A DNA stretch of 54,106 nucleotides. Source: an uncultured archaeon (lineage in GTDB: Archaea; Aenigmatarchaeota; Aenigmatarchaeia; QMZP01). Of the stretch, positions 18,599 through 36,317 are shown one piece after another. The stretch lies in assembly GCA_964353635.1 (NCBI GenBank), contig CAYGVS010000004.1, positions 1-54,106 on the forward strand, read 5' to 3'. A program made the position numbers and the translations under genes. The number at the start of each line of letters is the position of its first letter. Position 1 is the stretch's first letter. A model generated the notes under the pieces. It saw only the letters and a program-made list of their open reading frames with translations. It searched no databases and was not told where the DNA came from.

Positions 18599-19745
18599 CA
18601 CCAAAGGCGCGCCAGCTCCATCCGCCCATCTGGCTGGTCCACGTTTCCTTAAGCTTGGCGTCCCTAAGCCATTTTTCCACATCCTCCATGCTATAGTAAT
18701 TGTTCACAGGCGTCCCGAGCAGGTCATAGGAGTCCGCATGCTTAACCATGAAGGGGAAGCGCGCATAGTTCTTGAAGGGCATCTTATTGGCAATCCCTTT
18801 CATGCCCAGGTCATTAAAGAAATGGTATAGCATATTGGATGAGTGGTAAATAGATGCAGGAATGTAGCATATGTAATAAAGCATTCTTCGTGGCATCCTG
18901 ACCGTGAATTTCCTTAACACCCCCTCCACCACTTTCATCCTGAAGAACTTGTCATTCTTCCCGTAAAGCCAGATGAAAATCGAGCTGTTCGGCTTCATTA
19001 ACCCCACAAGGCTGAGGAAGCCGTCCTCTGGTCTCGGGAGATGGTGCAAAACCCCAATGGAGAATATGAAATCGGAGACTTTCCTAAAGGGAGGGTTGTA
19101 TATGTCCCCCTGGATTATGTGCGCATGTGGGAACTGCTTCATGTTCATGTAGGCAGACTCCACAGCATCGCTCAGGTCGAAACCCACTACCTCTGACCCG
19201 AATTCAGCCGCGTAATACGTGTGCCTCCCGAAGCCGCAGCCCGCGTCCAGCACGAGCTTGCCCCTGAAGAAATCCGGCTTTATGGGTTCAATATACCTAA
19301 GGAAGTTTTCCCTGAATTCCTCTATTATTCCAGGGAACCTGTTCCACTGGAAGCCAAAGCTTCCTGCTGTCCTTCTCTTGAACTCTGATTCTCTCCCAGA
19401 TTTCCCAAATGGGAGATTCACCTTGCCTTTGTATTTTTCAAAGAACTTGGGATTCCTTTCAAGCACGCTTACCTTCAACTCGTCTGGGAACATCCTAGGG
19501 ATGCCTCCTATTATCGGGAACTGCCTTTTGCATTTGGCGCATGTAAGGACACCCTCAACTATCTCTTTCTTGAAGCACTCTGAGCAGTCCACCCCTTTTG
19601 GGGATTTTCCGTAAAAGCTGCAATGATGTCTGCAGAAGGTCTTTTTTTCAATCTTATGTCCTCGCCTTTCGCTTACAAAAACCTCTACGGACAGGCTGCC
19701 CTTGCACTCCGGGCATATGAGAAAGTCAAGAACCCTGTGCTTCAT
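18588..19745 (-). CDS. Trm112-like Zn-ribbon domain fused to class I SAM methyltransferase
   Basis: LDFLICPECK...EGVLTCAKCKRQFPIIGGIPRM (Trm112 pattern); VLDAGCGFGR motif I; SIGVLHH. Confidence 0.82.
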   Translation of the reverse strand: MKHRVLDFLICPECKGSLSVEVFVSERRGHKIEKKTFCRHHCSFYGKSPKGVDCSECFKKEIVEGVLTCAKCKRQFPIIGGIPRMFPDELKVSVLERNPKFFEKYKGKVNLPFGKSGRESEFKRRTAGSFGFQWNRFPGIIEEFRENFLRYIEPIKPDFFRGKLVLDAGCGFGRHTYYAAEFGSEVVGFDLSDAVESAYMNMKQFPHAHIIQGDIYNPPFRKVSDFIFSIGVLHHLPRPEDGFLSLVGLMKPNSSIFIWLYGKNDKFFRMKVVEGVLRKFTVRMPRRMLYYICYIPASIYHSSNMLYHFFNDLGMKGIANKMPFKNYARFPFMVKHADSYDLLGTPVNNYYSMEDVEKWLRDAKLKETWTSQMGGWSWRAFGVKM

Positions 19746-19827
19746 ATGCAACAAATGCATCTTTAATTTTATAAGCCGAATGTTCAACATCACTCTATGC
19801 TCGCACAGGCTTTAACCATAATCCTAG

Positions 19828-20637
19828 ATGAAGGTGTGCATGAAAGAAAATTTCTCATTCGGGAAGAACTGGCAGGTTTTCCTCAGGACTGTCAATGAGG
19901 AAAGGATAAAGGTAGCAGAACGTTCAATATCAGACTTCCTAGGAATTGGCAGCCTCAAAGGAAAGAGCTTCCTGGACATTGGCTGTGGGAGCGGCCTTTT
20001 CTCATATGCGGCTTTCAGGCTGAAAGCCAATGAGATTGTGAGCTTTGATCTGGACACCTTTTCAGTGGAATGCTGCAGGCATCTCAAAAAAGAGGCAGGA
20101 TCTCCTGACAACTGGAAGATCCTTACAGGCTCCATACTAGACAACGGATTTATATCCAAGCTCGGGAAATTTGACATTGTATACAGCTGGGGCGTTCTGC
20201 ACCATACTGGAAATATGTGGGTGGCCATAAGGAATGCCGCAGGGCTGGTGGACAAAAGGGGCTTCTTCTACATAGCCGTATACAACAAGACCAGGATGTC
20301 TGGATTTTGGCTCATCACCAAGAGGCTTTATAACTCCTTGCCGGAGGCGGGCAGGAAATCCATGGAAATGGCCTACATTATGGCTCTTATGGCAAAGAAC
20401 TGCATAAGGTTAAGGAGTTCCACAAGCGGCTTAAAGGAATACAAATCCACCAGGGGGATGGGCTGGAGGACTGATATAGCAGACTGGCTTGGTGGCTATC
20501 CATATGAATCTGCCACAGCGGAAGAGATAACTGGCTTCATGGAAAAGAACTTCCCCCGCTTCCGCCTCATCAACATAAAGAGAACCAATAGCTCAATGGG
20601 CAATAACTGGTTCTTGTTTAAAAATGGTGAACCATGA
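19828..20637 (+). CDS. Class I SAM-dependent methyltransferase
   Basis: FSFGKNW, FLDIGCGSG, SWGVLHHTG, DWLGGYPYE. Confidence 0.85.
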   Translation: MKVCMKENFSFGKNWQVFLRTVNEERIKVAERSISDFLGIGSLKGKSFLDIGCGSGLFSYAAFRLKANEIVSFDLDTFSVECCRHLKKEAGSPDNWKILTGSILDNGFISKLGKFDIVYSWGVLHHTGNMWVAIRNAAGLVDKRGFFYIAVYNKTRMSGFWLITKRLYNSLPEAGRKSMEMAYIMALMAKNCIRLRSSTSGLKEYKSTRGMGWRTDIADWLGGYPYESATAEEITGFMEKNFPRFRLINIKRTNSSMGNNWFLFKNGEP

Positions 20638-35062: not shown

Positions 35063-35198
35063 GCCTCAGTAGCTCAGCAGGTTCGGAAGTTTGAACGTGA
35101 CCGAGTCACGTTCTTTCGATGAGAAGAGCACTCGGCTGTTAACCTTGCAAGAAAGGGCTGATACCGAGTGGTCGAAGGTTCGAGTCCTTCCTGAGGCG
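35063..35198 (+). tRNA. tRNA-Asn(GTT) with an about 41-nt D-loop insertion (about 35083-35124) and a 21-nt 37/38 intron (35142-35162)
   Basis: Acceptor GCCTCAG/CTGAGGC+G, D stem GCTC/GAGC, anticodon stem CTCGG/CCGAG with CT-GTT-AA loop, T arm GAAGG-TTCGAGT-CCTTC; BHB at the 37/38 intron. Confidence 0.92.
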
Positions 35199-35219
35199 CT
35201 AACAGAATAAGGTGTTTCC

Positions 35220-35492
35220 ATGGACATTAGGATGGAGTTGATATCAAACTGCTTCGATATCAGGGGATTCAACAAAAGGTGCAATTTCCATGGCTGCGCA
35301 AGGGCTCCTGAAAAGGAAGCCCTCATAATGGAGAATGACCTGAAGAGACAGCAGAAAAAGGAGCTCGTTTCCCTTTATTTCTGCAGCAAGCACTTCGACA
35401 TGTGTGTGAAGGATTTATTAAACCAACTGAACAAAATATGTGAGAGCGGCAAGAACGTGTACATGGAAAGCTACGAGGCAGGAGCGAAATAA
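35220..35492 (+). CDS. Small Cys-rich hypothetical protein, possible Zn binder
   Basis: GGTG RBS upstream; CNFHGC...FCSKH pattern; fills the gap between two tRNAs. Confidence 0.65.
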   Translation: MDIRMELISNCFDIRGFNKRCNFHGCARAPEKEALIMENDLKRQQKKELVSLYFCSKHFDMCVKDLLNQLNKICESGKNVYMESYEAGAK

Positions 35493-35542
35493 AAGAAAGC
35501 ACACCTAAAAAGCAGCAATAGATGGGACGACGGAAATGTCGC

Positions 35543-35719
35543 GGGAACCTTAAGGGGATTGAAGGCGACGAGAGTAGCCTTCGGGTCAATAAAGGCCGCA
35601 TCGGTAGCTCAGTCCGGGAGAGCACACGGCTGAAGATCGATTGACGACTTGCATGGGTTTATCAAGTCTTCTTTCTATTTGCGACCGTGGTGTCGTGGGT
35701 TCAAATCCCACTCGTCCCA
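35543..35719 (+). tRNA. tRNA-Phe(GAA) with a 55-nt acceptor-stem intron at 4/5 (35547-35601) and a 48-nt 37/38 intron (35636-35683)
   Basis: Spliced product GGGA|CGG TA GCTC AGTCCGGGA GAGC A CACGG CTGAAG|A CCGTG GTGTC GTGGG TTCAAAT CCCAC TCGTCCC A (74 nt); both introns sit in BHB-type motifs. Confidence 0.9.
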
Positions 35720-35738
35720 TTCCATTGGAATTGGTTAT

Positions 35739-36317
35739 ATGGCAAAAAGCACGCAGGCGAAAGAGAAGAATGAAGTTCGTAGTATCTACAAGCCTGCGGA
35801 GTGCAGGCTCCTGGAGAACAAGCTCTTTGTTCCAAAGGGTTTTGATGAGCTGCTCCAAAGGTCTTACGGAAAACATATGGAAGGGAGATTGGAGCTGGCT
35901 TTCGTGGAGGCTCTCTACCTCCTTGAGAAAGGCAGGATAGCTGTCAAGAAGTCCGGGAAGAAGATGGGCTTCCAGGAGCTCATGGAGTTTGGGATGGAGA
36001 GGGACAAGAGGCTGCATGAGAAGTATGTCGTCTACAAGGACATTAGGGAGAGGGGACTGGTCGCCAAGACAGGTTTCAAGTTCGGATGTGATTTCAGGGT
36101 TTACCAGCGGGGAGTCGGCGTCAAGAAGGGTCCAAAGGAAGCCTCGGAGCACACGAAATGGATTGTTTACACAGTCCCTGAGGATTATGCGTGCTCCTTC
36201 GCTGAGCTCTCAAGGGCTGTGAGGCTTGCCCATTCTATAAGGGCCAGGATGCTCTGGGCGATAGTGGATAATGAGGACGATGTCACCTATTTCGAGGTCG
36301 TGAGGATAAAGCCTTAA
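35739..36317 (+). CDS. endA: tRNA-splicing endonuclease, single-unit (alpha4-like) subunit
   Basis: YGK..EG.LEL..VEALYL, VYKD.RERG..KTG.KFG.DFRVY, EH, R.AHS.R, AIVD..DV.Y....KP. Confidence 0.95.
   Translation: MAKSTQAKEKNEVRSIYKPAECRLLENKLFVPKGFDELLQRSYGKHMEGRLELAFVEALYLLEKGRIAVKKSGKKMGFQELMEFGMERDKRLHEKYVVYKDIRERGLVAKTGFKFGCDFRVYQRGVGVKKGPKEASEHTKWIVYTVPEDYACSFAELSRAVRLAHSIRARMLWAIVDNEDDVTYFEVVRIKP

Follow-up and report, generated by a model that had tools for sequence, protein, structure and literature searches.

How a functional tRNA-Phe could be made from a gene with an apparently broken acceptor stem is the question raised by the locus described here. The window, that is, the whole stretch of 54,106 nucleotides that was analysed, is contig C4 of the genome G000, a 1.03 Mb, 88% complete assembly of 48 contigs from Candidatus Aenigmatarchaeota (DPANN). 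As pointed out in an earlier reading made from the letters alone (hereafter, the sequence-only reading), the 3' acceptor strand TCGTCCC is not complementary to GCATCGG, the seven nucleotides that precede T8. Non-standard pairs in the acceptor stem are indeed marked by the Rfam tRNA model, which matches positions 35598-35719 with 34.3 bits (gathering score 29). The expectation that standard tRNA finders would probably miscall this gene holds for the two used here: on the unspliced sequence ARAGORN reports no gene, whether or not introns are allowed, and the Rfam model misaligns. A contig from a different study spans positions 35470-35620 with two substitutions, both within the intron described below, and the tRNA-Phe locus is therefore not an assembly artefact. 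A separate intact tRNA-Phe elsewhere, which the sequence-only reading would have counted against its proposal, did not turn up: BLAST found no second tRNA-Phe body in this 88% complete assembly, the missing sequence of which could hold one.

The proposal in question was an intron inserted between nucleotides 4 and 5 of the tRNA and bounded by a textbook hBHBh' motif that lies upstream of T8 and is built in part from the 5' leader. The letters and coordinates given for this motif are all exact. It is a strict hBHBh' motif of 4+4+4 bp, with the outer helix TGTC (35537-35540)/GGTA (35603-35606) including two G-U pairs, the central helix GCGG (35541-35544)/CCGC (35596-35599), the inner helix CCTT (35548-35551)/AAGG (35592-35595) and two bulges of 3 nt (GA|A and AT|C). 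Cleavage of such motifs occurs after the second base of each bulge, a rule that follows from the geometry of the eukaryal A-I pair and from solved BHB complexes, and cuts are predicted accordingly after 35546 and 35601. In a BHB scan of positions 35500-35730, in which all four central pairs were demanded, no other pair of cuts combined an outer helix of at least 4 bp with an inner helix of that length. When 35547-35601 was removed in silico, ARAGORN called a 74-base tRNA-Phe(GAA), the acceptor stem of which, GGGACGG/TCGTCCC, consists of six Watson-Crick pairs and one G-U pair; removal of both 35547-35601 and a second insert, 35636-35683, gave a 74-nt tRNA-Phe(GAA) with a fully paired acceptor stem. 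The spliced tRNA carries G20, the GAA anticodon and A73, which are identity elements of tRNA-Phe. At the level of sequence analysis, the predicted 4/5 intron in the acceptor stem of tRNA-Phe(GAA) is thus confirmed. The parts of the locus are as follows.

35523..35530, plus strand: leader acceptor mimic T+GGGACGA, a perfect complement of TCGTCCC and A73.
35531..35536, plus strand: spacer CGGAAA, separating the mimic from the outer helix of the BHB, read from the sequence.
35537..35542, plus strand: leader bases in the BHB, namely the outer strand TGTC (35537-35540) and the GC of the central strand.
35543..35546, plus strand: exon 1, nucleotides 1-4 (GGGA), with G1 and G2 in the central helix and G3 and A4 in the 5' bulge.
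35547..35601, plus strand: intron 1, 55 nt, position 4/5 (BHB scan, in silico splicing, relatives), with the inner helix at 35548-35551/35592-35595, the central strand CCGC at 35596-35599 and the final AT in the 3' bulge.
35561..35582, plus strand: imperfect copy of a hairpin repeat (GAAGGCG..CGCCTTC type) in the loop of intron 1.
35602..35635, plus strand: exon 2, nucleotides 5-37, with the D arm and the anticodon GAA (Rfam, ARAGORN); C5 lies in the 3' bulge, and G6, G7, U8 and A9 form the outer-helix strand.
35636..35683, plus strand: insert 2, 48 nt, position 37/38, with a relaxed splice motif (placed by ARAGORN).
35684..35719, plus strand: exon 3, nucleotides 38-73, with the T arm, TCGTCCC (35712-35718) and the discriminator A (35719).
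35739..36317, plus strand: EndA gene, 192 aa, one-unit (alpha-like) (Pfam).

The exons are collinear within 197 nt of one strand, which is not the arrangement of a split or permuted tRNA gene. Several properties expected of a BHB tRNA intron are present, namely the helix-bulge-helix geometry, the restored cloverleaf, compensatory changes in relatives and the presence of genes for both EndA and RtcB. In the predicted precursor, nucleotides 1-2 of the tRNA lie in the central helix, nucleotides 3-5 in the bulges and nucleotides 6-9 in the outer helix. One strand of the outer helix and half of the central-helix strand are built from the leader, so that splicing would have to precede 5' maturation; the 4/5 position and this order of events, both put forward in the sequence-only reading, are supported by the sequence comparisons below.

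Upstream of the locus, at positions 35220-35492 of the window (plus strand), there is a 90-aa ORF without a Pfam match. It stops 31 nt short of the leader copy of the acceptor strand, and its C-terminal part is kept upstream of tRNA-Phe in genomes of the same genus. Another interrupted tRNA gene, by eye tRNA-Asn(GUU), lies at 35063-35199 (plus strand); its two inserts are located in the D loop and next to the anticodon loop, and ARAGORN miscalls it as Val(aac). The Asn-Phe-EndA gene order was found again in several relatives.

Strict 4/4/4 BHB motifs are common in this genome, with 3887 found on both strands at intron lengths of 11-220, and significance therefore comes from the joint requirement for a motif and a restored tRNA rather than from the motif alone. 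This joint requirement was addressed by shuffling the 125 nt upstream of T8 20000 times and demanding that BHB splicing, with the 3' cut falling within the seven bases before U8, restore a 7-bp acceptor stem. A solution was obtained in 1 of the 20000 shuffles when outer and inner helices of at least 2 bp each were accepted, and in none of the 20000 when both had to reach at least 3 bp.

The intron is also present in related organisms. In 40 related genomes, in loci anchored on EndA and in a pattern search over 371 genomes of the class, we identified four further complete 4/5 cases, two in the same genus (G004 and G001), one in another genus of family f1 (G020) and one in family f2 (G337). The pattern search over the 371 genomes produced exact matches in G000, G004, G001 and G020; of the 19 places with one mismatch, 15 were inspected, and among these G337 was the one genuine case, the others falling in coding sequence or ordinary tRNAs. 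Judging by its sequence, G003 (L003/L024) is probably another 4/5 case; its contig breaks off at nucleotide 5 of the tRNA, and it therefore enters none of the counts. In all five genomes the junction falls unambiguously at 4/5, which sets these introns apart from the 3/4 class. The central helix is GCGG/CCGC throughout, except for GUGG/CCGC in G337, and the introns end in CCGCAU or CCGCAA; in the four relatives they are only 15-19 nt long and lack the hairpin repeat.

Covariation was assessed in a five-row alignment of these genomes (A1), from which two loci with an intron at 9/10 (L031 and L032, see below) were left out. All 35 cells of the rebuilt acceptor stem hold a pair, and four of its seven pairs show changes on both sides; a shift of the partners by 1-3 columns reduces the pairing to 46-63%. 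Pairing in the three BHB helices amounts to 90%, 100% and 94%; three of their pairs have changed on both sides, and in G004 the second pair of the outer helix is a C-A mismatch. For the BHB and the leader mimic taken together, pairing reaches 96.5%, as against 31-43% with partners slid by 1-3 columns, in a small set of five sequences related by descent, of which G000/G004 and G001 belong to one genus and for which shuffle counts overstate significance, according to the note that accompanies the covariation tool. Covariation of the BHB in related genomes, by which the sequence-only reading had suggested that the motif could be checked, is thus seen as compensatory changes, and four further genomes carry the motif.

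Other relatives, including G002 of the same genus and most of the 38 loci read, have a contiguous 5' strand. A pattern scan of metagenomes gave, among the matches listed (at least 81, in at least 80 loci), 12 loci with a formal 4/5 BHB solution, none of them in a GAA anticodon context and hence none a new case. Within G000, whole-genome BHB splicing in silico followed by ARAGORN (175979 single excisions and 192547 pairs) revealed no other junction in a 5' acceptor strand. A junction at position 1 on contig C21, obtained in the same procedure, is an artefact. In addition, contigs in runs X1, X2 and X4, which derive from other organisms of these sediments, match the tRNA-Phe body only downstream of 35604 (inclusive), and upstream of this point they carry a different sequence ending in GAGCCGCA; by their sequence, these contigs may represent further relatives with an intron that ends in CCGCA before the D arm. 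A comparison of G000, G004, G001, G003 and G002 (L001, L002/L025, L005/L022, L003 and L012/L023, respectively) shows that the tRNA-Phe intron sets differ within a single genus, namely 4/5 with 37/38, 4/5 with an anticodon-stem and a T-loop intron, and 37/38 with a T-loop intron and no 4/5 intron, which implies fast gain and loss.

These comparisons bear on the simplest objection, that the locus is a decaying pseudogene in which a BHB arose by chance. The poor ARAGORN and Rfam scores and the abundance of strict BHB-like motifs in the genome would be in line with decay, but the joint solution appeared only once in 20000 shuffles, five genomes from two families show conservation and covariation of the feature, BLAST found no other tRNA-Phe in the genome, and the exons yield a canonical tRNA-Phe with G20, GAA and A73. 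We consider a pseudogene barely conceivable and take the 4/5 intron to be part of a gene that is probably functional.

The leader contains a further element, the heptamer GGGACGA at 35524-35530, which the sequence-only reading weighed only as something that could speak against the intron and which turned out to be a conserved, covarying part of the architecture. Together with the preceding T, it forms an exact complement of TCGTCCC and A73 (35523-35530), and ARAGORN accepts it as an 8-bp stem when it is joined to T8/U8. This mimic of the acceptor strand is present in all five genomes, always preceded by the T opposite A73, and its end lies 12 nt from G1 in G000 and 9-14 nt from it across the five. 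The 3' strands differ among the genomes (TCGTCCC, TCACCCC, TCGCTCC and CTGTCCC), and positions 1-6 of the mimic nevertheless form Watson-Crick pairs with the 3' strand in five of five (hand-registered table); in alignment A1, all 30 cells of positions -1 and 1-5 hold a pair, three of the six pairs having changed on both sides.

A complement as good as this might itself be the true 5' strand, in which case the 74 nt of 35531-35604 would constitute an insert at 7/8, excised at once or in two steps. Such an arrangement would provide seven Watson-Crick pairs and T:A73 in a joined form that ARAGORN accepts; furthermore, G002 of the same genus has a contiguous GGGGTGA with A7, and an AT-rich, TATA-like stretch at 35487-35495, noted by eye, would place the start of transcription just upstream of the copy. 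However, no BHB with cuts at 35530/35604 emerged from the scan, and other registers fail in the central helix by hand. The copy is mismatched at position 7 in G001 (U-U) and G020 (C-U), and UA follows it only in G004, so that elsewhere it cannot supply nucleotides 8-9. Moreover, such an insert would not explain why the bases on either side of the BHB (GGGA/GGGG/GGAG and CGG/CGA/TGG/CAG) covary with the 3' strand. A 7/8 insert is accordingly highly improbable in our view, and we retain the 4/5 intron with a leader copy. Splice registers that use the upstream copy (7/8, 4'/5 and others) were also tried as candidates in their own right and were rejected because the central helix fails in the scan and by hand. 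In the once-spliced intermediates of G000 and G337, inspected by hand, there is no second BHB that would excise the leader copy.

The origin of the copy may be illuminated by two other Aenigmatarchaeota loci, L031 (JAUXAV010000055.1) and L032 (CAZLFZ010000010.1), in which a tRNA-Phe gene just upstream of EndA contains an intron of 20 or 23 nt at position 9/10. This intron resembles the 4/5 intron in that it resides in the same tRNA, has the central helix GCGG (here nucleotides 4-7)/CCGC and ends in CCGCAA, whereas its splice point lies five bases further 3' and the whole 5' acceptor strand is contained in exon 1. Like the 4/5 loci, L032 has an upstream copy of the acceptor strand, here the near-copy GGGGTGG, and leader bases take part in its outer helix of 9 bp; L031, in contrast, is without an upstream copy. 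Taken at the sequence level, these similarities hint at a common origin of the 4/5 and 9/10 introns via duplication of the 5' strand.

The same loci suggest how the copy might be devoid of function: the 4/5 intron would be real and the copy no more than what is left of the ancestral 5' strand or of a small duplication that accompanied the rise of the intron cassette. Consistent with this possibility, the 5' strand is intact upstream of the related GCGG/CCGC intron at 9/10 in L031 and L032, the near-copy GGGGTGG in L032, located 3 nt further upstream, suggests a history of local duplication, and the copy in G004 extends as GGGACGGTAG, which equals nucleotides 1-10 of the tRNA save position 7. 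A further likeness, noted by eye and only 4 nt long, is that AGAT or AAAT precedes the real 5' end in two intron-less relatives, just as it precedes the copy. Yet a neutral copy should not track changes in the acceptor stem, and this one covaries at positions 3, 4 and 5 (30 of 30 cells) as well as at position 6, with T(-1) opposite A73 kept in five of five genomes. We regard a functionless relic as unlikely.

If the copy is instead under selection, several roles come to mind. With nucleotides 1-9 held in the BHB, the mimic is the sole partner left for the 3' acceptor strand, and it could serve as a tether that keeps the 4-nt exon fragment, as a decoy that spares the BHB, or as both. In the first role, the 5' fragment with its four tRNA bases would stay on the tRNA body after cleavage; in the second, the GC-rich 3' strand would be kept from pulling nucleotides 1-7 out of the BHB. 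Folding predictions agree with the pairing itself, in that the helix between the mimic and the 3' strand closes the minimum-free-energy folds of all five precursors, with pairing probabilities of 0.86-0.99 (0.96 for G000). The outcome for the decoy idea is mixed and lends it partial support at best: deletion of the mimic lowers the predicted probability of the central helix in G000 from 0.67 to 0.44 and in G004 from 0.74 to 0.05, and leaves it nearly unchanged in G020 (0.99 and 0.97), while in G001 and G337 the BHB central helix is not predicted at all (probability 0.00). In our judgement, the odds that the mimic is needed for efficient splicing are about even. In its pairing with the 3' strand, the mimic equals or surpasses the real strand (seven Watson-Crick pairs versus six and a G-U in G000 and G337), and the exchange of strands would thus not be favoured by energy and would need RNase P or another factor.

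We tentatively put forward the idea that the leader mimic is a selected, intramolecular RNA chaperone that orders splicing before RNase P cleavage, frees nucleotides 1-9 for the splice motif, holds the exon fragment from cleavage to ligation and conceals the true RNase P site in the unspliced precursor, which we see as a serious possibility that still falls short of being probable. If true, the mimic may be what lets introns so near the 5' end persist. The same architecture was sought throughout the genome as a BHB at position k/k+1 (k=1-6) followed by U8 R9 G10, with a 3' strand and a 6-nt upstream copy; 17911 candidates gave 37 matches, of which only tRNA-Phe looks credible by acceptor composition, helix lengths and a nearby T-loop motif. 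Another GC-rich match, on contig C9, was discarded because it lies within coding sequence.

Collectively, the computed features comprise the motif, the restored cloverleaf, the conservation and covariation of the BHB, the acceptor stem and the mimic, and the EndA, RtcB and RNase P RNA-like genes; from these we infer where transcription starts, that the precursor is cut and ligated, in which order the steps follow and what the mimic does. The reading that we favour, and consider probable, is that of a functional tRNA-Phe(GAA) gene of three exons (nucleotides 1-4, 5-37 and 38-73), the precursor of which is paired through the mimic and is spliced before it is processed by RNase P. The primary transcript would start upstream of 35523, and the mimic U+GGGACGA would pair with the 3' acceptor strand and A73, closing a tRNA-like body, while nucleotides 1-9, six leader bases and the end of the intron would form the hBHBh' arm. 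The splicing endonuclease would then cut at 35546|35547 and 35601|35602, after the second base of each bulge, and RtcB would ligate A4 to C5. The contiguous GGGACGG would displace the mimic on the 3' strand, an exchange presumably driven by RNase P or proteins, whereupon RNase P would cut the leader off at 35542|35543; until intron 1 is gone, the true RNase P site would remain unformed. The insert at 37/38 would be removed via its relaxed motif.

The enzymes that such a pathway calls for appear to be encoded. The adjacent EndA mentioned in the sequence-only reading is found immediately downstream of the tRNA, at 35739-36317, with matches to Pfam PF01974 (2.4e-27) and PF02778 (2.5e-14) and with 5x89 and 1a79 as its best solved relatives. 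A second EndA is encoded on contig C8 of G000 (18807-20114, minus strand); this protein of 436 aa contains two endonuclease-like stretches and matches PDB 4fz2, which we take to be the three-unit EndA of ARMAN-2, with E=3e-88. RtcB is encoded as well (529 bits), and there is an RNase P RNA-like match over the full model with E=1.2e-13, its 50.5 bits being below the Rfam gathering score of 84.

The second insert departs from the canonical form. At its ends (35635/35683) the scan yielded no strict BHB of the kind that marks a canonical 37/38 intron, and by eye the central helix has three of four pairs and the inner helix a single base pair, which amounts to a relaxed, hBH-like motif; the 3' site, also by eye, consists of a 3-nt bulge between the anticodon stem and a helix with 3 of 4 bp. 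Relaxed motifs are described as substrates of broad-range EndAs in the available text of two sources (PMC5829648, PMC4033280). The ARMAN-2 enzyme, a three-unit (epsilon2) EndA, has such a broad substrate range according to the accessible part of its description (Fujishima et al. 2011, PMC3239211), and the C8 protein is alike (3e-88 to 4fz2), which would explain the tolerance of relaxed motifs such as that of the 37/38 insert. The three-unit EndA may be the more relevant enzyme here, although, in contrast to the ARMAN-2 system, G000 also keeps a separate one-unit EndA beside tRNA-Phe.

The unusual length of intron 1 in G000, 55 nt, is accounted for by the hairpin copy at 35561-35582, which sits in the loop of the 15-19-nt mini-intron seen in the relatives. 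The intron hairpin was also considered as a K-turn or as a BHB and was rejected because, by eye, its bulge lengths do not fit. The hairpin belongs to a family of the form GAAGGYG, a loop of 3-7 nt and CRCCTTC, with a stem of 8-9 bp, of which there are 81 perfect copies on the top strand compared to none in shuffled sequences; examples are C6:6396-6418, C8:19785-19807 and C43:1330-1352. Open frames of at least 150 codons contain 43 of the 81, and copies are found in tRNA introns and leaders, including three around one tRNA on C6. Relatives of the same genus carry the hairpin too, for instance in the T-loop intron of G001. One copy lies inside the open frame of the C8 EndA and leaves the frame open.

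The tRNA gene complement of G000 is affected on a larger scale. The Rfam model finds 7 tRNA genes above its cut-off (19 at E<=1) and ARAGORN, with introns allowed, finds 11, only one of them intron-free; the two tools miss most tRNA genes in this lineage. Many tRNA genes of G000 have inserts in the T loop after GGTTCRAA. Missing tRNAs in DPANN assemblies can accordingly be an artefact of annotation rather than the result of gene loss, and the same concern is expressed for DPANN in general in the available text of Kaneta et al. (2018, PMC5829648), where extra loops in DPANN EndAs are associated with extensive disruption of tRNA genes and with tRNA predictions that are incomplete.

Finally, the locus can be compared with known systems. 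The sequence-only reading held acceptor-stem introns to be very rare; they are rare, but the kind as such is not new, since introns at 3/4 are known from Thermoproteales, as an extreme case (Sugahara 2008, cited in the accessible part of Yoshihisa 2014, PMC4090602), and the acceptor stem is among the intron sites in the available text of a 2025 paper (PMC12397907). In the literature searched, in the form available, we found no mention of a 4/5 intron, of tRNA introns in Aenigmatarchaeota or of a leader copy of the acceptor strand; 4/5 cases might appear in the tables of intron positions that belong to Sugahara 2008, Kaneta 2018 and tRNAscan-SE 2.0. As far as the available sources go, the Thermoproteales introns (PMC4090602) are likewise protein-spliced BHB introns in the 5' acceptor strand, in a group that, like the lineage of G000, is rich in non-canonical and multiple tRNA introns, and they share with the present case a very short 5' exon, such that leader bases must help to build the motif. 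They differ in position and lineage, 3/4 in Crenarchaeota versus 4/5 in DPANN (Aenigmatarchaeota), and the G000 intron has a conserved leader copy of nucleotides 1-6/7, a feature that we did not find described for the Thermoproteales introns in the text available. A first exon of four bases raises the questions of how the motif is built, how so tiny an exon is retained and how RNase P is kept from an early cut, and a conserved, covarying mimic offers one concrete answer to all three.

Read as a tether, the mimic would work on a principle shared with the split tRNAs of Nanoarchaeum equitans, in which, by the account available (Randau et al. 2005, per Fujishima and Kanai 2014, PMC4033280), complementary sequence outside the tRNA holds the pieces together and presents the BHB. 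By this account the two systems differ in that G000 has one transcript from one locus and forms the extra helix with the tRNA's own 3' strand rather than with a dedicated partner leader. To our knowledge, N. equitans lacks RNase P, whereas the extra segment in G000 would need to be removed by this enzyme. Relative to the available text of the sources compared here, the intron described above belongs to the established BHB class, with a position and a lineage that appear to be new and with the leader mimic as an apparently new feature of that class.
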